Below, piece after piece: positions 2,614-23,620 of a stretch of DNA of 64,000 nucleotides. The stretch lies in contig OX638340.1 of NCBI GenBank assembly GCA_951812955.1, positions 2,528,001-2,592,000 of the forward strand. Direction: 5' to 3'. Origin of the DNA: an uncultured Gemmatimonadota bacterium (GTDB lineage: Bacteria; JAAXHH01). Position 1 is the stretch's first letter, and each line of letters begins with the position of its first letter. Below the pieces are notes generated by a model. The model saw only the letters and a list, made by a program, of their open reading frames with translations. It made no database searches and was not told the DNA's origin. A program made the position numbers and the translations under genes.

Positions 2614-2623
2614 TTGAAAGCCG

Positions 2624-2800: not shown

Positions 2801-5866
<3,066 letters not shown>

Positions 5867-5921
5867 AATGCTCCAATTTATGTCGTCGTTCTCTCATTCC
5901 ATGTAATTGCCAACCCATTTC

Positions 5922-6040: not shown

Positions 6041-6048
6041 ATGCATTG

Positions 6049-6082
6049 AAGGCGCTCGATTCATTTCGAGCGCCTTTTTTGT
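6049..6082 (+). terminator. rho-independent terminator after 5S, possibly bidirectional for the convergent ABC ATPase gene
   Basis: Stem ggcgctcga / tcgagcgcc with a 6-nt loop, followed by tttttt gttt. Confidence 0.6.
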
Positions 6083-6147
6083 TTGGGGCTAATGAAAGCT
6101 TTAGATCGCTAGCGTAGTCTGGTTGTCTGGCCAGGTCCGGTCGTCGT

Positions 6148-6822: not shown

Positions 6823-7014
6823 ACACCCCTTTTGCAGTTTATCGGTATGCGTCGCACCTTAATCATTCGACTTGTGTGCGATGCGCATTGTTTCGTCGCG
6901 ATGTTGTGCATGCTTGTAAATGCTCTGCTTCACTAAGTGTTCGAGTGAGGGCGAAGGCGATTCGTGGAAGGCGGTGCTCCAGGATCAACGCTCTCAATAC
7001 TGAAGTGAAGAAGT

Positions 7015-7521: not shown

Positions 7522-7651
7522 CGACCTTGATCCTCCAGATTGCGACGTTTCCAGTCTATCGGTGGAATACCGGTTGTCCCGCTCAGAATCCATGGTCTTC
7601 GACGTATTTGGCATCAGACCGTAGCCCGGCACCGGCCGGCGTCTATATCGT

Positions 7652-8540
7652 CTACCGGCCCGTCACTTCGATTCGATTCCGGATGCCACGCGTGTAAGTC
7701 AGATGCCCGCGTCGGTCAATCCAGATCCCTTCGACGTGAGGCAAATCATCCAGTAACCGCTTTGAATTCTCGACTCCCATGACGTACGTCGCAGTCGCCA
7801 GGGCGTCCGCCGTCATGGCGTCCGGGGCGATGACCGTGGCGCTGAGCACGTGGTTCGATGAAACCCCCAGCCGTGGATTGAGAATGTGAGCGATACGAGG
7901 GCCCTGGTGCAGTCTATAGTTCTCATAGTCTCCTGCCTTCGCAATGGCCTCGTCTTCGAGTTCGACCATGGCGCATAGTGCATCCATCCGAGCGGTATGG
8001 TGAACGTATCCCGATGCGCCACAGGCGAGTAAGCTCGAGCCATCACAGGGCAAAGATGTCTCCTCCGGCCGAAACCAGGCCACATCGGACCCGGTGGTCC
8101 CGCAACGCCCCGACCGCCCGATCCACCATCTTGCCGATCTCCCTGATCCCGCCATCGGCTTCGAGGGCGACGAGCAATCGAACGTTGTTGCACACGGGAC
8201 AACGAAGATCCTCCTGTACCTCGTAAACGTACCCTACAGGATCGCCCTGTTCACCGAAAATCACGTAGCGGTCATATTCCCGAAAGTCCTCGTGCTTCCG
8301 GGATTCGGCCATGTGGAACGTAACCGAAACAAACTCCGAAACTGTCGGTTCATCGAGCGGTGGAAACAGGTTGGACATGCCGGCTAGCTCGTTTGACATC
8401 CTGTAAAGCGACGGGTCGGATCCGACTACATCGGTTCCGCCGGATCCCATGAGATAGATGAGATTCACGGCCACGACTACGGTGCCTGCTCCGGCGATCA
8501 ACACCACCGCCATTCGACTACGTTTCAAAAACTGCGCCAT
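7652..8540 (-). pseudogene. decayed fusion remnant: N-terminal part of FMN_bind-domain protein joined in frame to the C-terminal ~43% of ApbE, plus a frameshift
   Basis: ORF 8043-8540 aligns to the FMN_bind paralog (18779-19378) up to ...LLVALEADGGIREIG. It then continues directly as ApbE-like KMVDRAVGALRDHRVRCGLVSAGGD, matching ApbE residues ~170-195 of 17708-18709. The ITGATxSS flavinylation motif and the ApbE N-terminal half are missing. ORF 7652-8155 continues the ApbE C-terminus in another frame (frameshift near 8043-8070). Confidence 0.6.
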
Positions 8541-8582
8541 AGGTAAGTCACCCGAATGGACGTCTGAAGAACGTCGGAAACG

Positions 8583-11027
8583 CTACTCGTACCTCAACGC
8601 TTCAACAGGATTCGACCGCGCCGCTTTGAGGACGTGTAGGCCGACCGTGGAGGCCGCTACGGCAAGAATGGCCAGGCCCACCAGGACAAAGAGCGCCGGG
8701 TTGGGCGCAATGCGATAGGCGAAGTCACGCAGCCAACTTTCCATGACGAGGTAGGCGATCGGCCAGGCGATGACGCTCCCCGCAATGGCCATGATCACGA
8801 ACTCTTTCGACAGAAGCTGTACAAGTTGCGCCCTGGTCGCCCCCAAAATCTTGCGAACGCCGATTTCCTTCGTTCGCTGGTGCACGGTGAGGGAGACCAG
8901 GTTGAATAGCCCCAGGAAGGTCAGCACAATGGCAAGCAACGCGCATATTCCGAGGAGCGTGCCAAGGCGTTCTTCAGCCAAATACAGCTGGTCTATATCG
9001 TCTTCGAGAAAGGAATAGACGAGCGGGATTTCCGGGTAATGGGATCTCCAGACGCTATTGAGGTCCTCGAGCGCGGAGGCCGTACTCCCAGGTTGCAGTC
9101 GAACGCTCATGTGTTCGCCAAAGGAACTGCTTAAGAATACCATGGGCTCGACGGGCTGGTAAAGAGAACGAAAGTGGGTGTCTTGAATCACGCCGACGGC
9201 TCTGCCGCGCTGGACGTACTGCGGTAAGACGATTTCGATCGTCTTGTCCAGGGCCACTTCAGCGGAACTCCATCCCAGATGCCGGACGGCCGTTTCATTC
9301 AGGACTACCTCGAATACGGCGAACGGATTGAACATCCTCATATCTCTTGGCTTCAGATTCGAGCCCAGCACCAGGCTTATGTCCAGGGTCTCGAAAAAGT
9401 CGTGCTCCACGTTCACTATGCGGATAGACGAGGATACCGGCATATCGCTGTCGTCCCCGCGTCGAACCATGGTTTCCCCGATCATGCCCCTCCCCGGCGC
9501 GAGCCCGGGAACGTAATCCGACAGGGAGACGCCCTCGATGTACGGTGACCGCAGCAACTCGTTCTGGAATCCATCGGAGGATCTAGGATTAAACTGTTGG
9601 GAGCCTTCAGAAGAGCTTGATTCAATGGCCTCCACGAAGAATCCCGATATGAGGGGAACGACTATCACATTGGATTTTTCGAAGCCCGGAGGTTCGTTCA
9701 TCATGAACCGCAACTGGCTGTAGACCACACCCGTGCCGATGATCAGGATGGCGGAAAGGGCGAACTGGACCGTGATAAGAATACGCTTCACAAAGGGATA
9801 GTCGATCGCCTGGCTCAACCGGCGGCTAAGTGCGTCCATCGGCCGGTATCCAGACAGAACCATGGCCGGAAAACTCCCCGAGAATGCCCCCACGAGGACT
9901 GAAATGGCGATCAGACCAAGCCATATGTCGAGGTGTTGTATAAAACCCATGGACAGTGCCTTCCCAGTCACGGCGTTGAAGGCTGGAAGCGAAAGCCGGG
10001 CAAGCAGAACCGCCAGGACGAGTACCAGGCCTGAGATCATTACGGACCCGCTCAGATACTGCACGACAATACGTGAACGGTTCGCGCCGTACACTTTCAT
10101 TAGGCCCACTTCCTTCGCGCGGGCTGTCGACTGAACCATAGACAGATTGATGAAGTTGATGCAGGCGATCAGCAGCAGGAAAACGGCCCCCGTCATGAGG
10201 GTGTAGAGATAGGCCACACTGCTGTTCGCCTCGAGTTCGTTGAGTAGATTGGAACGCAGGTGAATCGCGGTCAGCGGTTGAAGGGAAAACCGGTAGTCCC
10301 GGATGCTCTCCCGGTTCACGGGCTTGATCTCGGTGTCGAAGTAAGCCTGGAACTTGGACGTCAGTTCCGGCACCAGGCTCTGATCGTGCAAACGCAGGTA
10401 CGTATAGTAGGTTGCGCTCCACCAGTTGTCCATGAACTGCAATTCCGTTCCGAAAGACAGGAACATGTCCGCGGTGAAATGCGTATGGCCCGGGAAGTCC
10501 TCCATGACGCCCGTGATGGTAAAGCTGTACGTGTTGTCCAGGCGCATCACCTCGCCCATGGGGTCCACTTCGCCGAAGTACTTCCTTGCCATCGATTCCG
10601 AGATGACCGCTTTGTTCTGCCCCTCCAATGCGGTGGCGGGATTCCCCTTGAGCAGGGGGATGGTGAAAACGTCGAATAGCGAAGGCTCGGTCCAGTAGAC
10701 CCGGTCTTCGTAGAACTCCCGGTCACCGAACCGTATAAGCCAAATGGCCCGAGTCGCCCGCATGCGGACAGCGCTTGCTACTTCCGGAAAGTTCTGTTTC
10801 AGCGTGGAAGCCGCTGCGCCCGGCGTGCGCGCGTTGTTGCCATTGATCAGCCGATAGACCTGCGGAGCGTACCTGTGGTGTGTATCGTAGGTCCATTCGT
10901 CCTTTATGTACAATAGCGTGAGTACGCACGCGGCCATGGCGATGGCCAGCCCCGTGACGTTGATGGTCGTATGGGATCTTTGCTTGAGCAGGGCTCTGAC
11001 GGCTATTCTGAGGTGGTGGGTGAACAT
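8583..11027 (-). CDS. ABC transporter permease, double FtsX-domain MacB-like (~814 aa, copy A)
   Basis: Start MFTHHLRIAVRALLKQ aligns with paralog start MELPHHLKISTRALLKQ. Two FtsX-like TM bundles with large periplasmic domains. Lies 13 nt downstream of the TPR gene. About 65% aa identity to 14447-16864. Confidence 0.85.
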   Translation of the reverse strand: MFTHHLRIAVRALLKQRSHTTINVTGLAIAMAACVLTLLYIKDEWTYDTHHRYAPQVYRLINGNNARTPGAAASTLKQNFPEVASAVRMRATRAIWLIRFGDREFYEDRVYWTEPSLFDVFTIPLLKGNPATALEGQNKAVISESMARKYFGEVDPMGEVMRLDNTYSFTITGVMEDFPGHTHFTADMFLSFGTELQFMDNWWSATYYTYLRLHDQSLVPELTSKFQAYFDTEIKPVNRESIRDYRFSLQPLTAIHLRSNLLNELEANSSVAYLYTLMTGAVFLLLIACINFINLSMVQSTARAKEVGLMKVYGANRSRIVVQYLSGSVMISGLVLVLAVLLARLSLPAFNAVTGKALSMGFIQHLDIWLGLIAISVLVGAFSGSFPAMVLSGYRPMDALSRRLSQAIDYPFVKRILITVQFALSAILIIGTGVVYSQLRFMMNEPPGFEKSNVIVVPLISGFFVEAIESSSSEGSQQFNPRSSDGFQNELLRSPYIEGVSLSDYVPGLAPGRGMIGETMVRRGDDSDMPVSSSIRIVNVEHDFFETLDISLVLGSNLKPRDMRMFNPFAVFEVVLNETAVRHLGWSSAEVALDKTIEIVLPQYVQRGRAVGVIQDTHFRSLYQPVEPMVFLSSSFGEHMSVRLQPGSTASALEDLNSVWRSHYPEIPLVYSFLEDDIDQLYLAEERLGTLLGICALLAIVLTFLGLFNLVSLTVHQRTKEIGVRKILGATRAQLVQLLSKEFVIMAIAGSVIAWPIAYLVMESWLRDFAYRIAPNPALFVLVGLAILAVAASTVGLHVLKAARSNPVEALRYE

Positions 11028-11040
11028 GATCGGGTGCTCC

Positions 11041-13503
11041 CTACGGTTCCAGGACAAGAAAGTTGACCGACTTGAAGACGCGCTGATCAGCGTGCCGGTC
11101 CGTCAGCGTCACGGTCAGCACATACTCCCCGGCTTCGAGATCCGTGGTGTCCATCGCGGTGTATTCAGCCTCTTCCGCTGAACTCCCCTCGCCTTCGAAG
11201 AAGGACATCACAGTCTGCATGTCGTCCGGCCTTCTGGCCCTGCGGTTCCTCAGTGCGGGCATGCCCAGGGGCGTGATTTCGTAAAGTGTCTCGTAGGAAG
11301 TGCGTCCGGCGTTGCCTAAATCCAGGTTGTACAATTCGTAGTAAACGTAAACGGGGTTTCCCCGAATGTAGAGCCGTCCCGGATTGGGCGTGATATTCAA
11401 CCCCTTGCGCACAAAGGGGCCCTGTACGCCTGACGGCGTGATGAGGGTGGCCAGCTTGAGATCGCTGATGAGCAGGTCGCGGCCGCGGTAGTCGGACAGC
11501 GTGACTGGCTTGCGATACACTCCGACCCGGCTCGTTGTCTCGTCCCGCACCTGGACTGCCAGCGTGAAACTACCCGACGGCGCGACAACGCTTTCAGGCA
11601 GGGTATACACCGGAACTTTCACGTTGCTTTCAGCCATCATACGCTTCGGCCTGTCGAAGGGACCGAAACCGAACTCGTGGGTGAACTGGGGGCTCATGGT
11701 CGAATCACGCAGGGTGACCAGGTGCGCGAGCCGGGTGCTGTTACCCCTGCCGTCCGAGACATCGCCGAACTGCCACACGGGGATGCTGTAGGACAGGTCC
11801 AGTTCCGTCGCGCCGTTGTCAGCCCTGTAGCTTACGGCGTCGAAGGCATATTCGAGTGGTTCTCCCCCGAAGTCGTGCAGGAATTCCTCGGGACTGCGCT
11901 TGATCAGGTTCTCGGCAACTCGTTGAGGATGATGGGTATCGTTTCGACGCATCAACTCGAAACCCGTGATGTCACCAAACGAATCCCCACCTTCATAGAT
12001 TGTCTGAAGTGGATAATCGAATTTCCCACCGCCCATCTGGTCCACGAAAAACAGTTCAAGATTATGCTGTACGTAAACCCAGCTTTCGACCTTGTACGAT
12101 TCTCCGACCAGACGTTTGAGTAACTCGAATGGATTGCTCTCCGACGAGCTCCCCCAGAGATCCACCGATCCCAAATCGAATCCCTGGAGCTGCATGATCT
12201 CCTCATCCAACAACGCCACCGGATCTCCCCTGCCCACCCGCAACACGTAGCCGGACTGCATATTCCGCACGCGTATTGCGTCCACGGCAGGAATCGCCGA
12301 CGGCTTGAAAACGGAAAAGGTGTTCCCATGCCTGCGCAGCAAGAAGTTGCTACGGTCATCCGGCGTACCGTATCGAACGTGAATCTCCCCGCGGCGGTCA
12401 AAGGGATACTGGCCCTCTGAGAAATGATTGCGGGCGTACAGTACGCGCCGGTAGTGTTCCACCAGGCGCTCGTTTTCGACGGTGGCCGGATTGGAATCCC
12501 GTGCGTTCCAGAAGGTCTGCCACAGCGCGTCGCGTTCCGGTCCTTCCACAGCCTCCCAGGTCTTCAATTCATCGGGAGGCGCGACATGTCGCAGGTCCCG
12601 GTACACCGCCTGCTCATCGGGATCGAGACCCGATATATAGGTCTCCAGGGCTTCCTGCAATCGATCGAACCCCCGTTCAGTCGAACCCGAAAGCATGCTG
12701 AACTGAAGCTGCAGGGTCCTGACCTCGTCCGCGACGGCATCTCCTGATTCTTCGACCAACTGTCCCAGGAGTTCAGCACCTATTTCGAACGCTTCGGCAC
12801 GAAGACACACATTGGTAAACCGCTCGAAGGCCCGACGGTGTTTGGGGTTTACCCGGTACTGGTTGAAATAGGCGGCTATCGCTTTTTCGTAGTCCGGCAA
12901 CGGGGGACTTTCATAACATCGTCCCAGTTGATAGTAGGCGTCCTCATGGGATGGATTCAGCTCTACGACCTTGAGGAAATACGTCCTGCCATCCCGGTCG
13001 CTGCCCACGATGGTATCTACTTTTTTATCATTCATGAAGGACATGCCCAGGTAGTACTGGGCGTCCGCGTTGTCCGGATCCAGGCGGATCGCGGTACGCA
13101 ACGCGTTGCGGGCATCCAGCTTTCTGTTTTGCAACTTCAGGTAGGTCTTCCCCAATCCGATGTGACCAGGCGCCCATTTTTTGTCCTGCCGCACTGCGCT
13201 CCTGAACGAACTCAACGCCTCACGGTAGTCGCCCAATTCATACCGCGCCATTCCGAGCCAGTAGTGGGCGGGCGCCGAATCCCCGTCAGCCTTGACGGCC
13301 ATTAGGAAGTACGGCAGCGCTTCCGCGTATCGTCCCTGTTGGTAAAGTGATTTGCCTTTTTCGTGGGCTGGCAGATCAATATCGGATACGGCCGATTGCG
13401 GCGGGGAAGTCCAGGTCTGGGAATGGCCGGGTAAACTCAGTGCAAGCGCGGCGATTGTAAGAAGCAGGCGGACGTACACGTAGTGCCTCTTTGGACGAAT
13501 CAA
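11041..13503 (-). CDS. secreted TPR-repeat protein with C-terminal GWxTD-like domain
   Basis: N-terminal signal peptide. Several TPR motifs (AHYWLGMARYELGDYREAL, AQYYLGMSF, AYYQLGRCY). The central segment RRGEIHVRYGTPDDRSNF resembles the GWxTD family. Abuts the permease gene. Confidence 0.6.
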   Translation of the reverse strand: MIRPKRHYVYVRLLLTIAALALSLPGHSQTWTSPPQSAVSDIDLPAHEKGKSLYQQGRYAEALPYFLMAVKADGDSAPAHYWLGMARYELGDYREALSSFRSAVRQDKKWAPGHIGLGKTYLKLQNRKLDARNALRTAIRLDPDNADAQYYLGMSFMNDKKVDTIVGSDRDGRTYFLKVVELNPSHEDAYYQLGRCYESPPLPDYEKAIAAYFNQYRVNPKHRRAFERFTNVCLRAEAFEIGAELLGQLVEESGDAVADEVRTLQLQFSMLSGSTERGFDRLQEALETYISGLDPDEQAVYRDLRHVAPPDELKTWEAVEGPERDALWQTFWNARDSNPATVENERLVEHYRRVLYARNHFSEGQYPFDRRGEIHVRYGTPDDRSNFLLRRHGNTFSVFKPSAIPAVDAIRVRNMQSGYVLRVGRGDPVALLDEEIMQLQGFDLGSVDLWGSSSESNPFELLKRLVGESYKVESWVYVQHNLELFFVDQMGGGKFDYPLQTIYEGGDSFGDITGFELMRRNDTHHPQRVAENLIKRSPEEFLHDFGGEPLEYAFDAVSYRADNGATELDLSYSIPVWQFGDVSDGRGNSTRLAHLVTLRDSTMSPQFTHEFGFGPFDRPKRMMAESNVKVPVYTLPESVVAPSGSFTLAVQVRDETTSRVGVYRKPVTLSDYRGRDLLISDLKLATLITPSGVQGPFVRKGLNITPNPGRLYIRGNPVYVYYELYNLDLGNAGRTSYETLYEITPLGMPALRNRRARRPDDMQTVMSFFEGEGSSAEEAEYTAMDTTDLEAGEYVLTVTLTDRHADQRVFKSVNFLVLEP

Positions 13504-13625
13504 GAAGTGGCATTGACGATTCGCGTTACCGAATCAAGGGGAGTTGCTTTCAAGGTATCCAATAGACCAGGAATCAACAACCGTCTATGCGACGCAGTTC
13601 CACAAGGTATCCCCATAGGTCGCGC

Positions 13626-14297
13626 TTACGCGGCCTCCGTCACGATCCGTCCGTCGAAGAGCCTGATGGTCCGGTGGGCGTGGTCGGCCAGCGCCTGGTC
13701 GTGGGTCACCATGATGATGGTCGTGCCCGCCTCGTTGAGGCCGTTGAGCAGTTCCATCACCTCGGCGCCGTTGGCCGAGTCCAGGTTACCCGTCGGCTCG
13801 TCCGCCAGGATCAGCCTGGGGTTGCCGATGACCGCCCGCGCCACGGCCACGCGCTGCTGCTGGCCGCCGGATAGCTGCTGCGGGAAGTGGTTCCGGCGGT
13901 GGGGGATCTGCATGTGCTCCATCGCCGCGTCCACCCGTTCCTTGCGCTCCTGCTTCGACGTGCCCAGGTAGATCAGCGGCAGTTCGATGTTCTCGTACAC
14001 GGTCAGCTCATCGATCAGGTTGAAGCTCTGGAAGACGAAGCCTATGTTGGCCTTGCGCAGGTTGGCGCGCTGCCGCTCGGAGTGGCCGGACACTTCCTGG
14101 TCCAGGAAATGGTACTCCCCGCCCGATGGATTGTCGAGGAGACCGAGGATGTTGAGCAGGGTGGACTTGCCGCAGCCCGAGGGTCCCATGACCGCCACGA
14201 ACTCGCCTTCGTCCACGGCCATGGTCACATCGTTCAGCGCCGTCGTCTCTACCTCTTCGGTCGCGTAGAGTTTCTTGAGATGTTCTGTCCTGATCAT
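13626..14297 (-). CDS. ABC transporter ATP-binding protein, MacB/LolD family (copy B)
   Basis: Start MIRTEHLKKLYATEEV (ATG ends at 14297) chosen by alignment with copy A. Same Walker A/B and signature motifs as copy A. Confidence 0.9.
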   Translation of the reverse strand: MIRTEHLKKLYATEEVETTALNDVTMAVDEGEFVAVMGPSGCGKSTLLNILGLLDNPSGGEYHFLDQEVSGHSERQRANLRKANIGFVFQSFNLIDELTVYENIELPLIYLGTSKQERKERVDAAMEHMQIPHRRNHFPQQLSGGQQQRVAVARAVIGNPRLILADEPTGNLDSANGAEVMELLNGLNEAGTTIIMVTHDQALADHAHRTIRLFDGRIVTEAA

Positions 14298-14446
14298 GGT
14301 GCGCTCCCGTAGTGTGGTAATACTCCGTATCCACGCATGCCATTTCGGAATCGTTCCTAATATCAAAGTAGCAAATGAAGAGGGTTGCAATTCCAGGTCG
14401 GAGAGATTAACTCCATAGATTGTGCGACTACGTTCATGCTGGAGAA

Positions 14447-16864
14447 TCACTCATACCTGAGCGCATCTACCGGGTTCAACGGTGCTTCTTTTGTAACATG
14501 GAAGGCAATCGTAGCGATGATTACTAACAGAATCCCCATGCTTACCAAGATGTAGAGGCTAAGGGGTGGAGAAACTCGATATGCGAAATCTTGTAACCAA
14601 ACGGCAGTAACCAAGTACGCCAACGGCCACGCTACCAGATTGGCGATCGCTGCCATAACTACAAACTGTCTAGACAGCAACTGAGTCAATTTCATAACTG
14701 TAGCACCCAGGGTCTTGCGTATGCCTAATTCCTTCGTTCTCTGTTTTGTGGTCAGGGAGACCAGGTTGAAAAGTCCCAGGAATGTCAAGATAGTAGCTAA
14801 GATGGTACAGACACCTATAAGCGAACCTAGACGTTTCTCCGGTACGTAAAGTCGATCAATATCGTCCTCCAAGAGGGAATAGATAAATGGAATTTCAGGA
14901 AAATAAGACTGCCAGGTAAGATCTAGGTAACTTAACGCAGATTCCATTTTCCCATCCTGAAAGCGCACCATCATGTGTTCGCCATTACCGTTCGTGAAAA
15001 CCATCGGTTCAACAGGCTGATAAGACGACCGGAAGTGGGCATCCGCAACGACACCTACAACCCTGCCTCGTTGGGTGATCTGAGGGTATACGATATCTAT
15101 CGTCTGGTCTACTGCTGACACTGGAGAAGTCCAACCTAGGTGGCGTACTGCCGTTTCGTTGAGAACAAGCTCGATTACGGGCAAAGGCCCAAAAGTCGAA
15201 TATGTAGCAAGACTCCTGTGCCTCAAAAAGCGTCCGTGTACCAGCTGTAAACCCAGTGTGTTTATGTAATCGTGCTCAACGCCCACAAATCGTACGGATC
15301 TGGAATTCCTCAGACTGTTTCCTGCCCGAGTTCGAACCATCCCATCACCCATTGTACCACGGGCAGGTTCAAGTGCCGGCACATAAGTTGAGAATGAAAC
15401 GCTGAGTACATCTGGCGATCTCAACATATCGTTTTTGAATCCGCTAGGTGGAACTAGTATTCCGCCTGGGAAGAAGCCTGTTATCAGGGGTACATTGACT
15501 ACATTTGATTCGTCAAAACCCTGGGGTTTGGTCAACATGTATTGAATCTGGATGTAGACCACGCAGGTGCTGATAATCAGAATAGTGGAGAGAGAAAACT
15601 GGATGATGATGAGCATCCGTTTCACCAGTGGAAAGTCCACTGAATGGCTGATTCTGTTTCCAAGAGAAAAGAGAGGGTGTACTCCTGACATAACCAAAGC
15701 CGGAAATCCTCCTGAAACGACTCCAACGATTATCGCAACGACAACTATCCCAAGCCAGATTCCAAAGTCTTCAGTAACGCCAAAAGAAAGCGTTTTACCT
15801 GTCAGCCAATTAAATGATGGCAGTGCAAGATAGGTCAAAATGAGAGCTAAAAACAAAACCAACATCACCATGGTTAAGGATGCAATCATATGCTGCCTGA
15901 TAATCTGAATTCGATCAGCACCGAAAATCTTAATCAAACCCACTTCCTTCATCTGATCAGCCGAATGAACCATAGACAGATTGACAAAATTGATTGAAGC
16001 GATGAGCAACAAGAAGATCGCACCTGAAATGAGCGCAAAGATGTAACTCACACTGCTATTCACCTCGAGTTCATTCAAAAGGCGGGAACGAAGGTGAATC
16101 TCCGTTAGTGGTTGAAGTATGAAACTATACTCCCGGATCCACGCGCTGTTGCTAGGTTTTACCGTTGATTCAAAATACCGCTGAAACTTGTCTTCGAGAA
16201 TTGAAGCCTGGTTACCTTCGTTCAACCGGACGTAGGTGTAATAGTCGGGACGCGACCAGTTGTCAATGTAGGATAGTTCATTGCCGAAACTCAGGAAGAA
16301 CCCAGCCTCGAAATGGGAGTTGACCGGGAAATCCTCCATTATCGCGGTAACGGTAAAATCCCATGTGTTGTCGGCTTGCAACACCTTACCGATGGGATCT
16401 TCCTCGCCAAAGTACTTTCTGGCGACTGACTCTGATATAACGACCTTGCCTATGCCATCCAACGCGTTGGTTTTGTTCCCCTTTACAAGTGGTATGGTAA
16501 AGACATCAAACAAGGAGGCTTCGGTCCAGTATACCTTATCTTCGTAAAAAGCACGATCACCGTACTGCATTAGCCAGATGGCCCTGGCCGCCCTTAAACG
16601 AACAGTACTTACAACTTCAGGAAAGTTCAGCTCAAGGGAACCTGAGGCGGCACCTGGAGTTCGGGCATTGGTGCCGTCAATCAATCGGAAGATCTCGTTG
16701 GCGTGTTCGTGGTGAGAATCGTATTTCAGTTCTTCCTGGATATACATCAGGGTTAAAATACACATAGCCATCCCGACAGTTATTCCGCTGATGTTTAATA
16801 TGGTATTGGATTTCTGCTTTAATAGTGCACGGGTGGAGATTTTCAGGTGGTGGGGTAGTTCCAT
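14447..16864 (-). CDS. ABC transporter permease, double FtsX-domain MacB-like (805 aa, copy B); low-GC
   Basis: Collinear with 8583-11027 over its whole length. About 47% GC, against ~62% for the flanks. Confidence 0.85.
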   Translation of the reverse strand: MELPHHLKISTRALLKQKSNTILNISGITVGMAMCILTLMYIQEELKYDSHHEHANEIFRLIDGTNARTPGAASGSLELNFPEVVSTVRLRAARAIWLMQYGDRAFYEDKVYWTEASLFDVFTIPLVKGNKTNALDGIGKVVISESVARKYFGEEDPIGKVLQADNTWDFTVTAIMEDFPVNSHFEAGFFLSFGNELSYIDNWSRPDYYTYVRLNEGNQASILEDKFQRYFESTVKPSNSAWIREYSFILQPLTEIHLRSRLLNELEVNSSVSYIFALISGAIFLLLIASINFVNLSMVHSADQMKEVGLIKIFGADRIQIIRQHMIASLTMVMLVLFLALILTYLALPSFNWLTGKTLSFGVTEDFGIWLGIVVVAIIVGVVSGGFPALVMSGVHPLFSLGNRISHSVDFPLVKRMLIIIQFSLSTILIISTCVVYIQIQYMLTKPQGFDESNVVNVPLITGFFPGGILVPPSGFKNDMLRSPDVLSVSFSTYVPALEPARGTMGDGMVRTRAGNSLRNSRSVRFVGVEHDYINTLGLQLVHGRFLRHRSLATYSTFGPLPVIELVLNETAVRHLGWTSPVSAVDQTIDIVYPQITQRGRVVGVVADAHFRSSYQPVEPMVFTNGNGEHMMVRFQDGKMESALSYLDLTWQSYFPEIPFIYSLLEDDIDRLYVPEKRLGSLIGVCTILATILTFLGLFNLVSLTTKQRTKELGIRKTLGATVMKLTQLLSRQFVVMAAIANLVAWPLAYLVTAVWLQDFAYRVSPPLSLYILVSMGILLVIIATIAFHVTKEAPLNPVDALRYE

Positions 16865-17226
16865 AACTGGCCTACAGATACTTAGTAAATGGTTCTAAGA
16901 GGGTTGTGATTAACGTCGAAGGGGCAGTTGAAAGTCTATAACTGCCTGTACGTTTAAACTCGTCCTCCGGTTTGATCAGCCCCAGACGTTCGCCGAGTGT
17001 TTTGGACTCGTCCACCACTGGCATTCAGCGAGGAGAGCATTTCCGTTGTCGGTGCGTGGAGCGTCGTTTGTTTTTTAACCTTGATGAATTCAATACCCAG
17101 ACGAAGTCGGTCAATCAACTCTTCCAACTGCTTGATTTGAATAGGCTAATAGAGGAAGTCACGGCGAAGGCTTCACTGGCAATATCGCGACTTTGATTCA
17201 GGTAGTTAATGTTGTCGTACGCATCT

Positions 17227-17400
17227 TAGTCTCCATGTGCGCTGTCAGGTTGGGTCTGTGACGGATTTTGTGTTACTGACTTTATCATGTTAAGGGCACT
17301 TTGTCTTCGTACATGATGATGAACTTGCTGGTGGCGGCCGTCCAGTTGGCGATGGGCCGTGTCTACCTTCGGGCCAGGTAGAGCAGTTTCCTGGCTACCC
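17227..17400 (-). mobile_element. IS256/mutator-family transposase C-terminal remnant (degraded, interrupted by stops)
   Basis: Minus-strand translation gives GVARKLLYLARR*TRPIANWTAATSKFIIMYEDKVPLN. This matches the conserved C-terminal LYLA.R....PI.NW..A.NqF.I.FedR block of IS256-family transposases. No intact ORF. Confidence 0.35.
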
Positions 17401-17707
17401 CGTCGGTGGGGAAGGCGCCGCCGCGCTATGGTCACCCCCAGTCTGCATGAGCACGTTCACCGCCCGTTACAATTCTGCTTCACATTGCATGGCGGCCAGC
17501 AATAGACTGGCAAAAGACGGTCAAAGGACAGGCGTAAACTTGTCGCTCTGAGTGCTATCCTTTACATAAACCTCTTCGACTCAGTCGTCTTCCACGGCTT
17601 CTTTATTCAGTCGACGTTTTCATCAAGCCCTTTAGATCCTCGTCGGTCTGTCTTGAAGCTACCGTGTATTTAACACCGCTCCCTTGTCATGAAGTACGAC
17701 CCACTCG

Positions 17708-18709
17708 TTAATTGACAATCTGCAATCTATTCTGGATCCCTCTTGTAAAAATAAACTGTCCATGCTGATCAATCCAGATCCCCTCGACGTATGGCATATC
17801 GTTCAGCAATCTCTGAGAACTTTCGATACCCATAACATAAGTCGCTGTGGCAAGCGCATCCGCTATCATTGCGTCGGGAGCGATAATCGTGGCGCTATGC
17901 ACGTGATCCGTCGAAGTCCCAAGTCGAGGATTGAGTATGTGTGTAATACGGCGACCTTGATTGATTTTGTAGTTTTCATAACCACCCGACGTCGCAACCG
18001 CCTCATCTTCGATTTCGACTGTGGCGCACAATGTATTGGGATGGTATGGAGACCGGATACCAATACGCCAAAGACGTTCAGGTTCTGGCCTTCCCATGGC
18101 AAGAACATCCCCACCTGCAGATATCAACCCGCATCTAATGTGGCGGTTTCGTAATACGTGAGCCATTCGATCCAATCCGTAACCTTTTGCTATTCCGCCA
18201 AAGTCTACCCCATAACCAGACGAAGCAATTCGTACTTTCTGTTCTTGCACTTGCAACTGATTAAAGTCTACCAGTTCGAGCATTTGCCGTAAGCTTCGAC
18301 TTGACGGATCACAATTATAAAATCCCCAGTGGTACATAATCGGTAGAATTGTCACATCGAAGGCACCATCTGTAATCTCGCCGATTCGTCTTGCTGTAGT
18401 CGCGACCTTGATAAAGTGGGGTGTTACGCCATGCCAAAGCCCATACATGTTGTTTACATGCGTAAGTTCACTGGTATTACGATAGAGGCTTAGCAGGCTG
18501 TCAATTTGAGCTAAAGCATCGAAGGCATCATAAATTGATTCTTTACTGTACTCGCATTCCTTGATTACAAGTTCTACTTTCGTCCCCATATGAATCTGAT
18601 GACGACGAACAAGCCTTTGCTTGTCTGACAATCCTGCGCCAAAATTGTATGGCACAAGTAACATTGCCGATGAAAGGCCGACCGATTTTATGAAATTGCG
18701 TCGCTTCAT
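17708..18709 (-). CDS. apbE: FAD:protein FMN transferase (ApbE family) with twin-arginine signal
   Basis: N-terminus MKRRNFIKSVGLSSAMLL has a Tat motif RRxFxK. ApbE-like blocks are present throughout (GIAKGYGLD, RCGLISAGGD, ADALATA). Low GC. Confidence 0.8.
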   Translation of the reverse strand: MKRRNFIKSVGLSSAMLLVPYNFGAGLSDKQRLVRRHQIHMGTKVELVIKECEYSKESIYDAFDALAQIDSLLSLYRNTSELTHVNNMYGLWHGVTPHFIKVATTARRIGEITDGAFDVTILPIMYHWGFYNCDPSSRSLRQMLELVDFNQLQVQEQKVRIASSGYGVDFGGIAKGYGLDRMAHVLRNRHIRCGLISAGGDVLAMGRPEPERLWRIGIRSPYHPNTLCATVEIEDEAVATSGGYENYKINQGRRITHILNPRLGTSTDHVHSATIIAPDAMIADALATATYVMGIESSQRLLNDMPYVEGIWIDQHGQFIFTRGIQNRLQIVN

Positions 18710-18778
18710 AGGGGCTATGCTATGATGGAATCTAGGACCATCTTTGTTTTCAAAAACAAGGCTACGTACAGAAAGCCC

Positions 18779-19378
18779 CTAACCTCGATGGATATGCCTA
18801 AGTCTATTGAGAGCATCAACAATATGAATCGAGCTTTTGGTAGCACCTGTGATTCCGTCGATATTTTCGCCTAATACGTAGAAATGTAGGTTCGGTTTCG
18901 ACTTAAATTGCCTCAGAAACCTCGTTTCATCCTCAACAGATAGTGGTTCACCGGAGAGTTCAAGGGGTTCAAGCACTCTGATATCATGGAGCCGACCCAA
19001 GTCATCGAGTGCGACGAGCATTCGGACGTTATTGCAAACAGGACATTTGAGATCCTCCTGTATTTCGTAGACGTAGCCAACAGTGTCGATTCGTTCGTCA
19101 AACACCACATATCGATCGTAACCTCTGAATTTCTCGTGTTTGCTAGAATAGCTTTCAGAGAAAGCGGATATAGTGAATTCCCTTAAGATACGATCGTCAA
19201 GTGGTGGGAATATGTCGGATGAAGTAATCGAACCACTTCCCGATCCCAAGTTCGACACGTGTGAGTAAATCACATCGTCATCACATGAATGTCCGGATAA
19301 GTAGACTATATTGACCACAGCAATTACTACTCCGGTTATAAGAAACATGGTTCTTTGAATGAGTTTGAAATTTCGCAT
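18779..19378 (-). CDS. membrane-anchored FMN-binding (FMN_bind) domain protein, predicted flavinylation substrate
   Basis: Start MRNFKLIQRTMFLITGVV (ATG ends at 19378) chosen by alignment to the copy-A paralog. N-terminal TM helix. C-terminal FMN_bind domain with flavinylation motif DGITGATKSS. CxxC (CPVCNN) within the domain. Confidence 0.7.
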   Translation of the reverse strand: MRNFKLIQRTMFLITGVVIAVVNIVYLSGHSCDDDVIYSHVSNLGSGSGSITSSDIFPPLDDRILREFTISAFSESYSSKHEKFRGYDRYVVFDERIDTVGYVYEIQEDLKCPVCNNVRMLVALDDLGRLHDIRVLEPLELSGEPLSVEDETRFLRQFKSKPNLHFYVLGENIDGITGATKSSIHIVDALNRLRHIHRG

Positions 19379-19515
19379 ACTACAACCGAACTCCATCTTC
19401 GTTTGAGCAGAAGAGGCCGAAGTTTGACTGGTTGTTCCTTGGGAGCCACGACATAGATTTGGGATTTCACTGACTGAACAGAATGTTGAGTTGAGGGGAG
19501 GCCGAGCCAATACAC

Positions 19516-19932
19516 TTATCTAAGGCGGAAGCTCATTGGAAAGTAGAATTGCGCAGATATAGGCTTTCCTTCCTTAGTCGCTGGCTTGAAAATCATCATT
19601 CGTGCTTGCGACAGTGCAAGACTATCTAGTTCTGGATGGGTCGACGATTCTATGATCGAAACAGATTCCACCGTGCCATCTGCCTTAGATCTTAAGAGAA
19701 GTACAACATCGCCTTCATTGCTGTACTTATCCTGTGGCGTGGGTCTAAACAATAGTCGTGGAGACGTATCCCAATCACCCACTTTAGCTATAACTTCAGT
19801 GTCAACTTGGGTTTCTTCCACCGGCACACTATCGTTCTCTACATTTCTGTCGTTACTGCAGGAGATGACTAACGAAAAGAGTACAATCTGGGACAGGCTG
19901 AATCGAAGCATTTGTGGAGCCCTTTCTGTCAT
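19516..19932 (-). CDS. TonB C-terminal-domain lipoprotein (copy B)
   Basis: Lipoprotein-type signal (..LFSLVISC, probable start at internal Met 19911). C-terminal segment GDVVLLLRSKADGTVESVSIIESSTHPELDSLALSQARMMIFKP is TonB_C-like. Paralog of 7015-7521. Confidence 0.6.
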   Translation of the reverse strand: MTERAPQMLRFSLSQIVLFSLVISCSNDRNVENDSVPVEETQVDTEVIAKVGDWDTSPRLLFRPTPQDKYSNEGDVVLLLRSKADGTVESVSIIESSTHPELDSLALSQARMMIFKPATKEGKPISAQFYFPMSFRLR

Positions 19933-20022
19933 ATGAGGTCGATTTCTGAACGCGAGGTAAATTCTGATTCATGTTCTAACTTTCAATGTGATTCAAAATC
20001 ACCAGTATAAGTTAAAACCTGA

Positions 20023-21735
20023 TCAATCGGGGCTATTGACCCGAGAAGTAAATCGAAAATTGTATTTAAATATCGTATTTTGGGGGACGATGAGTCGTGT
20101 TCCCATAGTGGGCATTAAACGAAACCTGCCTACAGACTCTAAGGCGATACTATCCAGTGCCGGATGTGCTGATGGTGTCTTTGTCCAAATCGAATCTACG
20201 ATACCATTTGAGTCGAAAAGTACGTTCACTGCAATTTCCATTTCGTCAAGATGACCGTACTCAAGAGGGAATGCACGACTCGTAGCCGTACCGAGGTGCA
20301 AGATTAGAGGTTCTTCATACGATGGCACAACATAGTCGTCAATGATCCCGTCGGTCACTAGTCGAATGTATTGGTCATATCCTTCCAAGGATCGCCAGGA
20401 ATCATCTTTTGTGAATCTGGCGATACTCTGTGCAAAAGATGTAAAAGGGAGGTCACCGATACGGCGAGGATGGGACATCATGTTGACGGATTGATTGTTG
20501 GCGTACGATCTGATAAAAAGACTCGATTCATCTATCGGCATGGAAGACACGTTATCGAAGTATCGTGTGAAAGTTGACCGGTCCGACCCGTTGGAATCAT
20601 GGGCTTCGGTGGACGGCATGTTAGTGAAGTATTGAGAGATATCAAATCGGTCTGACCCGCTGGATGCCTGCACTTCGCGATAGGTAGTTGTAGTCAGATA
20701 GTACTCCACATTTGAAACGTAGAATACGGAAATGGTCGCATCATGAGACCGGACGTAGTCTGATATACCACGCAAGGCTGTTTCACCGGCGAAATCACCT
20801 ACGACTGGAACGATCAAGTTCCTCCCGTGCAACTTCTTGACGACGTCAAATGCACTATCATCAGCAAGGAAGTTGGCTTGCTCCCCACTTATCGTTTCTG
20901 CAAGAATCAACTCCCGCAGACTCGGGAAATTAAAGGTTGCATCCCCCGGTGTTCCCAGATCGTACTGGATGTCTAACTGGCTCCTGAAGAAAGCCTGATA
21001 GACTCGTTCGACAGCTTTCATATCTTCCATCGAGTCTATGCCATACGAATGTAAATGGGACTTGATGACCCGGAGATTTCGCTCGTAGAGTTTTACATCG
21101 GGATCTATTCCGTCGAAATATGCGATCAGCGTTGCAACAGATGATTCACTTCGAGACCAGGGCCGGACCGGTCCTCCCTTAAATATCTCGGCCAGGTAGG
21201 AGAGATTCCGGTTCAATGGTTTGCTGAGCAGCCTAGACAGGAATTCAGCACTGTCGCTGGACTGAGCGAAGAGGGACTTGTAGATCAGGTGCAACAGCAT
21301 GTTATCGCGACGAATGTCAACCACGAAAGCCATGTGCGGCCTGGTCTCGGCGATGTAGGTAAAATTCTGTTCGGGGCCGACACCCACATAAACGCCACCG
21401 GAAACGTGCCGTTCGCGTAGTACGGCAAATGGATGCAGGTAAGAAGATTCGTTTGAGGTGAAATTGGTTGAATGAAAGGAGCCACCCGTCTCCGACAGTT
21501 CTCTAATCAGGTTCGAGAAGGCTGGCGTGGACAGTGAGTCCGGGAGGGCACCTGCTCTTGGATATGGCTTTACAGTCCTCTTGTTAGACCAATCAGAAGG
21601 ATTGTAACACTGGACTGCAAACAACATCACGACAACACCTGCCGTTATCCATGTTGTTGTTTTCCATATAACCATATCCGAGGATTTCCAAGCAGCTAAA
21701 GATTGACCTAAGTATTGTGAAAGTCTCTCAGCCAC
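20023..21735 (-). CDS. hypothetical membrane-anchored protein (570 aa) with C-terminal TonB_C-like domain
   Basis: N-terminal TM helix (WITAGVVVMLFAV). Large domain with a glycine-rich GVYVGVGPEQNFTYIA ... AFVVDIRRDNM segment. C-terminal ~80 aa (NGIVDSIWTKTPSAHPALDSIALESVGRFRLMP) resembles the TonB_C fold. Low GC. Confidence 0.5.
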   Translation of the reverse strand: MAERLSQYLGQSLAAWKSSDMVIWKTTTWITAGVVVMLFAVQCYNPSDWSNKRTVKPYPRAGALPDSLSTPAFSNLIRELSETGGSFHSTNFTSNESSYLHPFAVLRERHVSGGVYVGVGPEQNFTYIAETRPHMAFVVDIRRDNMLLHLIYKSLFAQSSDSAEFLSRLLSKPLNRNLSYLAEIFKGGPVRPWSRSESSVATLIAYFDGIDPDVKLYERNLRVIKSHLHSYGIDSMEDMKAVERVYQAFFRSQLDIQYDLGTPGDATFNFPSLRELILAETISGEQANFLADDSAFDVVKKLHGRNLIVPVVGDFAGETALRGISDYVRSHDATISVFYVSNVEYYLTTTTYREVQASSGSDRFDISQYFTNMPSTEAHDSNGSDRSTFTRYFDNVSSMPIDESSLFIRSYANNQSVNMMSHPRRIGDLPFTSFAQSIARFTKDDSWRSLEGYDQYIRLVTDGIIDDYVVPSYEEPLILHLGTATSRAFPLEYGHLDEMEIAVNVLFDSNGIVDSIWTKTPSAHPALDSIALESVGRFRLMPTMGTRLIVPQNTIFKYNFRFTSRVNSPD

Positions 21736-21771
21736 TTCTTTTGACTAAGAGACTCTCACGCCGGATCAGCC

Positions 21772-23055
21772 CTAACAACTTCTACCACCATTACAGTAAC
21801 AACCTACATAGCCCCACACATATGCATCCCCACAGTCATCATAATAACTACAATATACGCGATGGGCCAGGACCGCATAGGCAAAGGAGAAGGGCAACGC
21901 GCACTGCAACCCCACGTGGACGATTCGATCGAGCATCCAGACTATCACGGGTAGGGCTGGACCGGATGCCGGAACCAGACCCCAAGAGGACAGGAGCGTG
22001 CCGGGTTTCGTGATTGTCCACATCGGCGCGAGGATGAGGGCCAGGATGAATCCGGCCTCGATAATCTGGAGGCGTATGCGCTGTTGCTGGCTCGCCACGA
22101 AACGCTGGGCAATCAGTAGGCATCCTGTTAAGATAACAACGAGGAGAGGAAACATTGGAACGGGAATGGGCTCAACTATGCGGACGACGAACTGCGCAAT
22201 CTCATTATTCCAACCATGGGTGATGCTCAGTAAGTAGATCGAATGTAAGACTATCCACACAAAGAGAGGCGTCAGGATGAACAATGCTTTTTTTCGTAAC
22301 CATTCTCCAAAGACAGACGAACTTGGAAAAACAGTTAATATCTGAAAGATAAGAACAGTTTCCAGGATTGTTGCTAATACGACGATGTATATACTGAGCG
22401 ATAGTAACCAAACCGGCCATCCTGCGATCATGGGATGAAAGGCAGGAGACGATGTGAGCGCCGTAGCGAGGAAGAGCAACGCGCATCGAAAGGCGATGAC
22501 GTTTAGATGACTGCGGAATCCCATCCAAGTACCAAAACCTAACAGCACGATCGGGAAGATCAGAAAGGGTCCTCTTTGGAACCAGGTCATCTCCGCGACA
22601 CCCATCACAATCTCCTGCTGATCAACCTGTAGGGTGTAAGGTACCTCTTCGATCTCCTCAAGTGTCATGATACCGGTATGTATCCGATCTTCGCGAAGCC
22701 AGACGATTTCGATACGTTCTCCGGGTTGACTTTGCAAACGTGCCTGGAAATAGGCTTCTGGTCGTGATCTCAGGTCGATTCCATTTACCGATATGATCCG
22801 GTCGCCCGACTGTATTCCTGCCAGGTCGGCCGGACTTCCGTTCTCGATCTGTACTGCGATGATACCTTCGTCTTGGCGAATCCGGACGAGATGAAACCAC
22901 GTACCTTCCTGTAGATTGCTAACGGCGCTCTTCGTCAACCCCGGCGTTTGTATCATCTCGCTACCAAAAAATTGAATGCCGGGCGACCAGTGTTCGATCT
23001 GCGTGAATCGAACAAGTGTCCACGCCACCAGACCCAATTGCATGCATAGCAGCAA
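21772..23055 (-). CDS. PDZ-domain polytopic membrane protein with Cys-rich C-terminal tail
   Basis: N-terminal TM followed by a PDZ domain (GSPADLAGIQSGDRIISVNGIDL). About 8 predicted TM helices. Tail CSYYDDCGDAYVWGYVGCYCNGGRSC. Low GC. Confidence 0.5.
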   Translation of the reverse strand: MLLCMQLGLVAWTLVRFTQIEHWSPGIQFFGSEMIQTPGLTKSAVSNLQEGTWFHLVRIRQDEGIIAVQIENGSPADLAGIQSGDRIISVNGIDLRSRPEAYFQARLQSQPGERIEIVWLREDRIHTGIMTLEEIEEVPYTLQVDQQEIVMGVAEMTWFQRGPFLIFPIVLLGFGTWMGFRSHLNVIAFRCALLFLATALTSSPAFHPMIAGWPVWLLSLSIYIVVLATILETVLIFQILTVFPSSSVFGEWLRKKALFILTPLFVWIVLHSIYLLSITHGWNNEIAQFVVRIVEPIPVPMFPLLVVILTGCLLIAQRFVASQQQRIRLQIIEAGFILALILAPMWTITKPGTLLSSWGLVPASGPALPVIVWMLDRIVHVGLQCALPFSFAYAVLAHRVYCSYYDDCGDAYVWGYVGCYCNGGRSC

Positions 23056-23620
23056 GGCAAGTGTACAAACTATGAGATATCGATAGTTGAAAAACTTCAG
23101 TTGAGATCACCCCTGAGACTATGGACTGGATTCCGCAATACATGTTGCGTTGTGCCGACAATCGCCGTAAAGAGTTCAATTATAGACTATTCAGAGAAGA
23201 CGTGTCGGCAGCTTTGAAGAAATGTTACGAAACAGTAAGTGTCAAGAAAGTGCTGGTCACTGGTATTAGTCGTTACAAGGACCAGAACGAGGTCTTGTAG
23301 AAAATACTGGTCTAAACTAACACGGAATAGGAAAGGGAAGGTATTGCGAAACTATTGCTTGCGTTGTAGAACCGGCCATTCAACTCTGTGTGGTCGATTC
23401 AACCTGGCGGACCGCAGGTCGATTGGATTGTTCTTAAGGCTTTTTCAACTCGATTGTGTATCGTAGCCACGAGTTTTTAGCCGAAACAAAGCGACGCCCT
23501 TAAAACTTGACACCAGAAGCTGGATCGCAACATATTAGAGTTTTCCCGGTGAGTTGCCTTGTTTGAACTTTAAATGACTCGTAGAACGGAAGAGAGCGGT
23601 CCTGAAGAGGAGGAGTGTTC

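Follow-up and report, generated by a model that had tools for sequence, protein, structure and literature searches.

A low-GC stretch between an rRNA operon and an EF-G-like gene as the probable interior of a modular cassette exchanged within an uncultured marine lineage

Replacement flexible genomic islands of aquatic bacteria, a concept of Rodriguez-Valera and Lopez-Perez as described in PMC10872708, hold divergent gene sets of equivalent role at the same chromosomal position. Their breakpoints are found within homologous genes, conserved flanks show raised divergence at the borders, mobile-element machinery is absent, and GC is below that of the core genome; their content is surface-glycan genes. 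Classical horizontally acquired islands are marked by atypical GC and k-mers, sporadic distribution, insertion sequence (IS) fragments and tRNA adjacency, together with an integrase and flanking repeats. Gene conversion and concerted evolution are known for bacterial paralogues, for example the duplicated tuf genes. The present analysis concerns a low-GC segment of ~9 kb in a 64-kb stretch (64,000 nucleotides of contig OX638340.1; hereafter the window) from an uncultured Gemmatimonadota bacterium. The segment lies between an rRNA operon and a gene for an EF-G-like protein (start at 23615, plus strand). With a probability of roughly three in four, it is the interior of a modular cassette in a replacement-type flexible island at this site, swapped among relatives by homologous recombination.

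Like replacement islands, this locus holds divergent gene sets of equivalent role at one position, and its breakpoints fall inside homologous genes between conserved flanks, which suggests exchange by homologous recombination. Border divergence is raised (94% identity in the ATPase A gene against 99.5% for its neighbours, and 92–96% upstream of EF-G), no mobile-element machinery was seen and GC is below that of the core genome. Unlike them, it carries a predicted two-component-regulated MacB-type exporter cassette instead of surface-glycan genes, has grown additively to two tandem cassettes (A and B), and contains a conserved GC-rich ATPase gene which would itself act as a recombination site. 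Atypical GC and k-mers, sporadic distribution and an IS fragment are shared with classical islands, and the larger region abuts an rRNA operon containing tRNA-Ile and tRNA-Ala; it differs from them in that no integrase was seen, flanking repeats are missing, boundaries lie inside homologous genes and the donor pool is of the same lineage. As in conversion between tuf paralogues, a short tract of 310 bp of one ATPase paralogue has been copied into the other in DNA otherwise identical. Unlike in tuf-type concerted evolution, the paralogues of the present genome are not homogenised (89%), and conversion is patchy and strain-dependent. The predicted exporter resembles MacB-type (type VII) exporters, ADOP permeases (TIGR03434) and the darobactin exporter DarBD in having two MacB_PCD and FtsX units in 805 amino acids (aa) and a separate ATPase of MacB/LolD/DarD type. 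It differs from ADOP, DarB and DarD in scoring under the curated cut-offs, and from MacB-type exporters in that there is no membrane-fusion protein in this window, although a related locus (L089) has one.

A complete cassette would consist of a PDZ sensor kinase, two LuxR-type regulators, small accessory genes, the genes for DUF7790, TonB_C, FMN_bind and ApbE proteins, a MacB/FtsX permease and an ABC ATPase. Strains and species of the lineage (metagenome-assembled genomes, MAGs, of Ca. Latescibacterota or Gemmatimonadota) would hold at this site nothing, one unrelated gene or different cassette versions. These versions would be exchanged by homologous recombination through the ATPase genes, the ends of a TPR gene, the kinase and the region upstream of EF-G, and site-specific integration would play no part. 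The conserved, host-like, GC-rich ATPase would travel with the cassette, with occasional gene conversion between it and its paralogue, and the island would also grow additively, as with the two cassettes in tandem. In the present genome the cassette has decayed: it contains an old IS256 remnant, between ApbE and the permease, and has undergone a recent 4.7-kb deletion, to which the catalytic half of the kinase, the two regulators, a pair of small genes and the greater part of a Cys-rich peptide gene were lost.

Composition of the segment and occupation of the locus in relatives

The sequence-only reading, made from the letters of this DNA, had proposed a horizontally acquired low-GC island at 14298–23614 with changed codon usage, in a window otherwise of 60–65% GC. 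The low GC is real: positions 14447–23614 have a GC of 0.471, compared to 0.606 for the remainder of the window. Relative to 38 background windows of 3 kb from positions 23615–64000, the 3-kb windows of the island lie 6–8 standard deviations (sd) below in GC and 18–26 sd off in tetranucleotide distance. In 1-kb sliding windows, GC drops from 0.59–0.60 (13–14.5 kb) to 0.43–0.50 (14.5–23.5 kb) and returns to 0.60–0.68 beyond. Codon usage is altered as had been noticed; GC at third codon positions (GC3) is 0.43–0.56 for six island genes versus 0.81–0.86 for the EF-G-like gene, oppD, oppF and both ATPase genes. The GC steps stand at the start codon of ATPase B (14297), beside the spacer 14298–14446, and at ~23600. 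The value given for the surroundings holds for the right part of the window (62.1%), but the left part, 1–14446, has only 56.4% GC (rRNA operon 54%, cassette A 55–59%). Cassette A (6–14 kb) is mildly atypical (2.5–6 sd), and GC3 is 0.54–0.74 for cassette A and the TPR gene. Milder dips to 0.56–0.59, against ~0.62, are present at 45000–47000 and 61500–63000.

Occupation of the locus was followed by scanning one genome per species with the EF-G-like protein. Seven relatives were found at 88–91% aa identity, all deposited as Ca. Latescibacterota or 'bacterium' MAGs; other hits are labelled Gemmatimonadota. At L009, L011, L012, L013 and L015, and in the more distant L016 (68%), lipA-16S-23S-5S is followed by EF-G-oppD-oppF. 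Similarity of these six to the window ends at ~6084–6087 and resumes at 23595–23609, with 138–1333 bp in between (5S to EF-G spacing of 138–273 bp in four of the six and 1.3 kb in two). As the rRNA operon stands directly beside EF-G in six relatives, all of 6088–23594, cassettes A and B included, is inserted relative to those species. The segment is not ancestral at this locus. The comparison of synteny thus came out as the sequence-only reading had expected, the closest relative (L004) also being without cassette B. What stood of the proposed acquired island is its absence from the locus in relatives and its recent movement; its limits and its foreign low-GC donor were not supported. A single unrelated open reading frame (ORF) of 428 aa is present between 5S rRNA and EF-G in L009 (8649–9935) and L013, and the site between the rRNA operon and EF-G accepts other inserts too. 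In L010 and L014, a PDZ kinase with two regulators is found beside EF-G.

L004, a contig of 173.7 kb, is 98.1% identical to the window in the EF-G region and 97–100% in cassette A. Its order is EF-G, a PDZ-HisKA_3-HATPase_c kinase (884 aa), two regulators, TPR gene, permease A, a degraded FMN_bind/ApbE pair, a small ORF, ATPase A and the contig end. The segment replaced with respect to L004 extends over ~11300–23379, so that ATPase B, with its high GC, and the TPR gene belong to it. Its left breakpoint at ~11300 corresponds to residue ~735 of the TPR protein, and its right breakpoint is in the spacer 23056–23379, identity being back at 23380. The two TPR proteins are ~59% identical overall and nearly identical over the last ~85 aa, as read from a BLAST-based profile and BLASTP; a global MAFFT profile is misleading here because of indels. 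Between the breakpoints, the L004 kinase and TPR genes have only 61–68% DNA identity to the window, while the flanks have 97–100%. One gene set has been replaced by a divergent, longer and functionally similar one inside conserved flanks, a change that amounts to more than a plain insertion or deletion. The AT-rich spacer before EF-G, earlier counted as island, is so for 23056–23379, but its rightmost 235 bp (23380–23614) are native and common to L004. Likewise, the two membrane proteins said to lack a counterpart in cassette A both exist, but the PDZ protein has a counterpart beside cassette A in L004.

In two further, conspecific contigs, L097 (MKWU01008521.1) and L098 (Ga0209021_1003837), oppF-oppD-EF-G has 98% aa identity, and next to it stand a B-type kinase of full length, two regulators and a 173-aa gene. 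Starting at window position 21857, L097 aligns colinearly as far as 27012 and L098 as far as 29856, and their gene order validates the B-type kinase beside EF-G. The N-terminal PDZ/membrane sensor half of the kinase (3967–5169 in L097, 6793–7995 in L098 and 21865–23055 in the window) has only 81% aa identity, the EF-G-like protein 98%; the sensor domain of the kinase is also variable between strains. Cassette B is sporadic, being absent at the locus in L004, L009, L011, L012, L013, L015 and L016. The window, L004, L097/L098 and L101 hold sets of PDZ kinase, regulator, permease and ATPase from EF-G to the rRNA side, in which the kinases are 54–81% and the permeases at most 56% identical. The smallest version of the hotspot is seen in L101 (1–9260), where a kinase, two regulators, another permease (815 aa) and an ATPase fill the space from EF-G to the 5S rRNA.

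Breakpoints, the GC-rich ATPase and the question of a donor

Contigs L005–L008, obtained from four other samples, match the window over ~13332–21854 with 9–10 mismatches in 7.9–8.5 kb outside one tract. Left of 13332, the TPR gene of L005 and L008 has only 62–78% DNA identity to that of the window. Since the near-identical 8.5-kb block stands beside a TPR allele that is ~35% different, the block has moved recently. ATPase B, with its high GC, belongs to the moved unit, which places the GC step at 14298–14446 inside this unit and not at its boundary. The same permease B-ATPase B arrangement with its GC step is present in L001 and L005. Placing an insertion boundary at 14298–14446, as had been proposed, is thus not tenable, the exchanged unit including ATPase B and reaching into the TPR gene. 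At least three alleles of the TPR and GWxTD gene (window 11300–13331) are seen, in the window, in L004 and in L005/L008, with 60–78% DNA identity among neighbouring DNA of 97–100%.

Signatures of mobility were looked for at the limits and inside. Direct repeats at 14298–14446 and 23056–23614, suggested earlier, do not rise above chance, and neither do inverted ones; for these and for the revised limits the longest shared exact words are 8 nt, a length matched by 168–285 of 300 shuffles. No integrase, recombinase or transfer gene was detected by Pfam on the seven large ORFs of 13626–23055, the TPR gene and two cassette A ORFs, smaller ORFs and spacers not being scanned. The assignment of ATPase A and permease A was made from their likeness to the B copies only. 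No tRNA is found at the low-GC edges.

The ATPases A and B share 89–90% DNA and 93% aa identity, compared to ~64% and 56–57% for the permeases A and B. Permease A is 97% identical in aa to that of L004. The ATPase B family comprises ~45 database clusters, 90–97% identical to ATPase B; among the NCBIfam models, DarD, MacB and LolD come closest to it, and none of them reaches its cut-off. The frequency of identical codons between ATPase A and B is 0.78, versus 0.58 at saturation (GC3 near 0.85). The extreme conservation of the family and this high saturation value indicate that much of the A/B similarity is constraint. Raw synonymous divergence (dS) as a proof of old A/B homogenisation was down-weighted, the similarity being partly due to constraint. 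The ATPase A and B genes likely share an older common origin, younger than the split of the permeases.

All 28 differences between ATPase B of the window and of L008 lie inside 13956–14265, with none elsewhere in the gene. At these 28 sites, L008 agrees with ATPase A at 25 and the window agrees with the B-type copy of L001 at 14. Over the 310 sites of the tract, ATPase B of the window differs from ATPase A at 31, and the A-like version of L005, L006 and L008 at 8. This pattern indicates that an A-to-B conversion of ~310 bp took place in the sister strains, and that the window keeps the older B sequence. A-to-B conversion in the present genome is not supported, given the 31 differences in the tract and the 14 diagnostic sites shared with L001. 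Strict concerted evolution of the ATPases in this genome was rejected, A and B (89%) being less alike than orthologues elsewhere (95%). ATPase A itself is 94% identical to that of L004 (window 6000–6750), compared to 99–100% in the next 2 kb and 98–100% in the adjoining 4 kb, so that a recombination patch is seen in an ATPase gene for the second time. In L101 the ATPase is visibly mosaic, with some stretches A-like and others L089-like. The ATPase genes are hotspots of recombination.

Apart from the copy of the source genome itself, on a 3.81-Mb contig, the homologue search with permease B returned a Tara Oceans scaffold at 86% (L001), two hits at 70% (L089, L091) and many at 54–58%, including the permease A type. 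The few named hits at 54% aa or above are labelled Gemmatimonadetes and most hits are nameless; this search gave no sign of a distant donor. GC3 of the cassette genes in L001 is 0.41–0.54, with 0.90 for the ATPase and 0.55–0.67 for the flanks. In L089, DUF7790 and permease genes have a GC of 0.41–0.46 and GC3 of 0.42–0.50, whereas GC3 is 0.91 for the ATPase, 0.86 for the fusion-protein gene and 0.79–0.86 for other flanks. The cassette genes of L091, L094 and L096 are reduced in the same pattern, the ATPase not being present in the locus and the core flanks having GC3 0.65–0.89. Across six other loci (L001, L005, L089, L091, L094 and L096), with permeases down to ~57% aa identity, cassette GC3 is 0.41–0.68, versus 0.65–0.91 (also given as 0.75–0.91) for the core flanks in view (L089, L091, L094 and L096), and the ATPase beside a cassette is always GC-rich (GC3 0.82–0.91). 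The cassettes of L089, L091, L094 and L096 stand at unrelated chromosomal sites, and a DUF7790 gene is the recurrent neighbour of the permease family in these four and in L001. Reduced GC across the family together with a GC-rich ATPase is not what a recent donor of ~45% GC predicts; it fits an AT-richer flexible gene pool across the lineage. Throughout the lineage, the permease and accessory genes are stably low in GC, which does not mark the recent arrival of foreign DNA. The pairing of a high-GC ATPase with a low-GC permease as a local event was ruled out, as it is found also in L001, L005 and L089.

These data bear on the history favoured by the sequence-only reading: a recent transfer from a foreign low-GC donor inserted 14298–23614, and the ATPase was then overwritten from ATPase A, creating the GC step. 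Strong compositional deviation, the 89–90% identity of the ATPases next to ~64% for the permeases, and the A/B conversion which does occur in this population would all suit it. It is nevertheless improbable. The same ATPase/permease pairing stands in other contexts in L001, L005 and L089, the exchanged unit takes in ATPase B together with the first part of the TPR gene, and the close homologues are all of the same lineage, with cassette genes low in GC there too. Overwriting of ATPase B from copy A is contradicted by its B-type states (14 of 28 with L001), the A-like tract being in sister contigs.

Vertical inheritance was weighed on the same evidence. An ancestral region, repeatedly lost, in which low GC arose in place by AT-biased mutation under weak selection or little recombination, would agree with the family-wide and long-lasting low GC across permeases only 57–70% identical in aa, and with the kinase-regulator modules beside EF-G in L004, L010, L014, L097 and L101. 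The direct junction of rRNA operon and EF-G in L016 and five species-level relatives argues against it, as do the replacement (61–68% identity) rather than deletion seen in L004 inside flanks of 97–100%, the identical block beside a TPR allele 35% different, and the family cassettes at unrelated sites in L089, L091, L094 and L096. This history, too, has a low probability.

Content and decay of the cassette

The cassette appears from its domains to be a two-component-regulated MacB-type (type VII ABC) exporter; this function is predicted from these domains only. Permease B matches MacB_PCD (102.5 bits) and FtsX (65.5 bits) in two stretches each, both above Pfam cut-offs, and its PDB relatives include MacB. 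Against the NCBIfam ADOP model (TIGR03434) it scores 206.8 bits, not reaching the cut-off of 622.3. DUF7790, TonB_C and an ApbE-flavinylated FMN_bind protein appear to form a predicted periplasmic accessory set of the exporter. The FMN_bind protein carries DGITGAT at residue 218, fitting the flavinylation motif D-x-x-[S/T]-G-A-[S/T] defined in PMC12052999. ApbE with such a motif-bearing target agrees in gene content with an ApbE-dependent extracytosolic flavinylation system, and flavinylation is predicted. A survey of flavinylation gene clusters has no FtsX, MacB or ABC transporters in its text, and the DUF7790, TonB_C and FMN_bind/ApbE genes that accompany the exporter did not turn up in it either.

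Intact copies would add to this set a secreted 8-Cys peptide and a CxxC membrane protein. The 82-aa peptide gene (L001 5197–5445; L006 188–436; L007 3–251; last 27 codons at window 21772–21854) encodes a signal peptide and an 8-Cys peptide of ~42 aa (SGTCIHNALVCCPRGPGNCSYYDDCRDAYVWGYVGCTCNGGRSC). It is adjoined by the gene of the 198-aa membrane protein with a CxxC motif (FFKPGDCNNC). Neither gave a Pfam or NCBIfam hit. The two could represent an exported peptide rich in disulfides with the oxidoreductase that serves it.

In the window, this end of the cassette is missing. Alignments to L005, L006, L007, L097 and L098 all break at 21854–21857. Read against L005, L006 and L002, the junction joins the kinase ending in CATCGCGT to ATTGTAGTTATTATGATGAC, the latter inside the 82-aa gene upstream of DUF7790. 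Compared with L005, ~4.7 kb are missing: the catalytic half of the kinase, two LuxR-type regulators, the 173-aa gene, the 198-aa CxxC membrane protein and the first 55 codons of the 82-aa gene. Relatives have PDZ-HisKA_3-HATPase_c kinases of 884–888 aa followed by two LuxR-type regulators. The 427-aa PDZ protein is therefore the N-terminal ~397 aa of a kinase fused to the last 27 codons of the Cys-rich peptide gene. A homologue search with the kinase N-terminus returned 11 proteins, full-length kinases not among them, and the 64-kb window has no other kinase or regulator of this type. The deletion is strain-specific, an assembly error being less likely.

Cassette A has decayed elsewhere. Its positions 7716–8086 match 17769–18135 of cassette B, and 8161–8297 match 19005–19141, with a gap of 75 bp in A versus 870 bp in B. 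Cassette A has thus lost ~800 bp, and with them the flavinylation motif along with the rest of the FMN_bind C-terminal part, as well as ~190 aa at the N-terminus of ApbE; L004 (12527–13376) shows this loss too. With B lacking regulators and A lacking the flavoprotein pair, both cassettes look partly decayed. In L094, a 3.9-Mb relative genome, within 7533–12754, three ORFs make up a permease of the family and two (613 and 244 aa) the PDZ kinase, each being split; DUF7790-TonB_C is directly followed there by TPR-permease, with more module shuffling and decay.

The IS256-family transposase fragment placed by the sequence-only reading at ~17.2–17.4 kb corresponds to a real remnant, probably of this family, at 17093–17441, where the minus strand encodes RGGAFPTDGVARKLLYLARR, a stop codon and TRPIANWTAATSKFIIMYEDKVP. 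With the stop changed to W, tblastn matched IS256-family transposases in 1,956 plasmid records at 45–51% identity (best E 5e-7). Pfam gave no hit on the 46-aa remnant, the fragment being too short. The orthologous cassette of L001 has no counterpart of 17093–17441. The remnant is identical in contigs L005–L008 and is therefore older than the latest spread of the block. No terminal inverted or direct repeats and no target-site duplication flank 17093–17441, which makes it a remnant and not an element, and no second copy occurs in the 64-kb window. The gap between ApbE and the permease had no blastn match in plasmids.

Several points count against exchange of a modular cassette by homologous recombination as the explanation of this locus. 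The IS256 remnant shows that mobile elements were once active inside the cassette. In L010 and L014 the kinase adjoins EF-G with no rRNA operon within 10 kb, which the proposed history of the hotspot accounts for only in part. The recombination is deduced from breakpoints and absent mobility signatures, in relatives known as contig fragments. Finally, the junction 21854/21857 is carried by no independent contig, and may be a rare variant or an assembly error. The last point also touches the possibility that the whole island is an assembly or binning artefact, with foreign low-GC sequence joined to a high-GC genome; the exact proteins of the window were not located on contigs in the look-up index, and the deletion junction lacks independent support. 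An artefact is very improbable, as L005 and L008 from other samples span permease B-ATPase B-TPR, L097 and L098 span kinase-spacer-EF-G-oppD, and the permease and PDZ protein are on record together on one 3.81-Mb contig.

Gene map and meaning of the locus

A GC-rich hairpin with a T-run (GAAGGCGCTCGATTCATTTCGAGCGCCTTTTTTGTTT) is present at 6049–6080, directly 3' of the 5S rRNA, and is probably the terminator of the rRNA operon; similarity to relatives stops a few bases past it. Promoters and terminators predicted in the island were no more numerous than in shuffles, and an exact 22-mer of the island-side spacer had no match in JGI metagenomes.

Table 1. Features of the locus in window coordinates. 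The strand is left empty for features without one.
Feature	Position	Strand	Remarks
Whole variable region	6088..23594		17.5 kb, GC 0.519, between 5S rRNA end and EF-G-like gene
rRNA operon	16S 890-2447, tRNA-Ile, tRNA-Ala, 23S, 5S to 6039	+	
ABC ATPase A	6148..6822	-	GC3 0.84; ABC_tran by likeness to ATPase B (93% aa); rRNA-side end of region
TonB_C-like protein A (weak)	7015..7632	-	49% identity over 39 aa to cassette B TonB_C protein; no Pfam hit
Degraded FMN_bind/ApbE pair, cassette A	7652..8540	-	Pfam hit to ApbE C-terminal part only
MacB/FtsX duplicated permease A	8583..11027	-	814 aa as called in databases; GC3 0.74
TPR and GWxTD-domain protein	11041..13503	-	TPR families; GWxTD 50.4 bits, cut-off 28
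ATPase B-DUF7790 block, near-identical in L005-L008	13332..21854	-	8.5 kb; ATPase B, permease B, IS remnant, ApbE, FMN_bind, TonB_C, DUF7790
ABC ATPase B	13626..14297	-	223 aa; GC3 ~0.82; ABC_tran E 6e-35
Gene-conversion tract in ATPase B	13956..14265	-	Gene positions 33-342, 310 bp; B-type here, A-like in L005, L006, L008
Permease B/ATPase B spacer	14298..14446		149 bp, GC 0.47; site of GC step
MacB/FtsX duplicated permease B	14447..16864	-	805 aa, GC 0.464; MacB_PCD and FtsX each twice
ApbE-permease gap	16865..17707		843 bp
IS256-family remnant	17093..17441	-	Last ~46 transposase codons, one internal stop, plus 3' end
ApbE-family FAD:protein FMN transferase (intact)	17708..18709	-	Pfam ApbE E 7e-72
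FMN_bind-domain protein	18779..19510	-	Maximal ORF, true start probably near 19378; FMN_bind 23.3 bits, cut-off 22
TonB_C-domain protein	19516..19932	-	Pfam TonB_C E 1.4e-10
DUF7790 protein	20023..21735	-	570 aa; Pfam DUF7790 E 2e-30
Truncated PDZ sensor histidine kinase ("PDZ membrane protein")	21772..23055	-	427 aa; PDZ domains only
Island-side spacer upstream of kinase gene	23056..23379		GC 0.43; unalignable to L004, colinear with L097 and L098
Native EF-G upstream region, outside island	23380..23614	+	92-96% identical to L004 from 23380

A wider model of the locus is tentative and rather doubtful. It would be a cassette-exchange system, in which a near-invariant, GC-rich ATPase gene and PDZ-kinase/regulator genes serve as anchors for recombination and low-GC permease and accessory modules are swapped across the lineage. 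The GC3 contrast (0.82–0.91 versus 0.41–0.68) would be kept for long periods by unlike recombination regimes, with conversion biased towards GC in the anchors and decay biased towards AT in a rarely recombining interior, and the intact module may represent an undescribed system of 8-Cys peptide with CxxC protein, ApbE-flavinylated protein and MacB-type exporter.

The locus calls for caution, as low GC had been taken to prove that the donor was foreign, and a GC step to mark where the insertion ends, with local conversion. The comparative data instead place the step inside the exchanged unit, find low GC family-wide in the lineage and locate the conversion tract in sister strains. At face value the locus is an ordinary flexible genomic island, with two modest additional features: the GC contrast that persists inside a single operon, and the exporter cassette itself. 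It thus offers a well-defined natural case in which a conserved ATPase and its fast-diverging permease and sensor partners are under different regimes in one operon, and it draws attention to an exporter cassette, so far uncharacterised, of an uncultured marine lineage.

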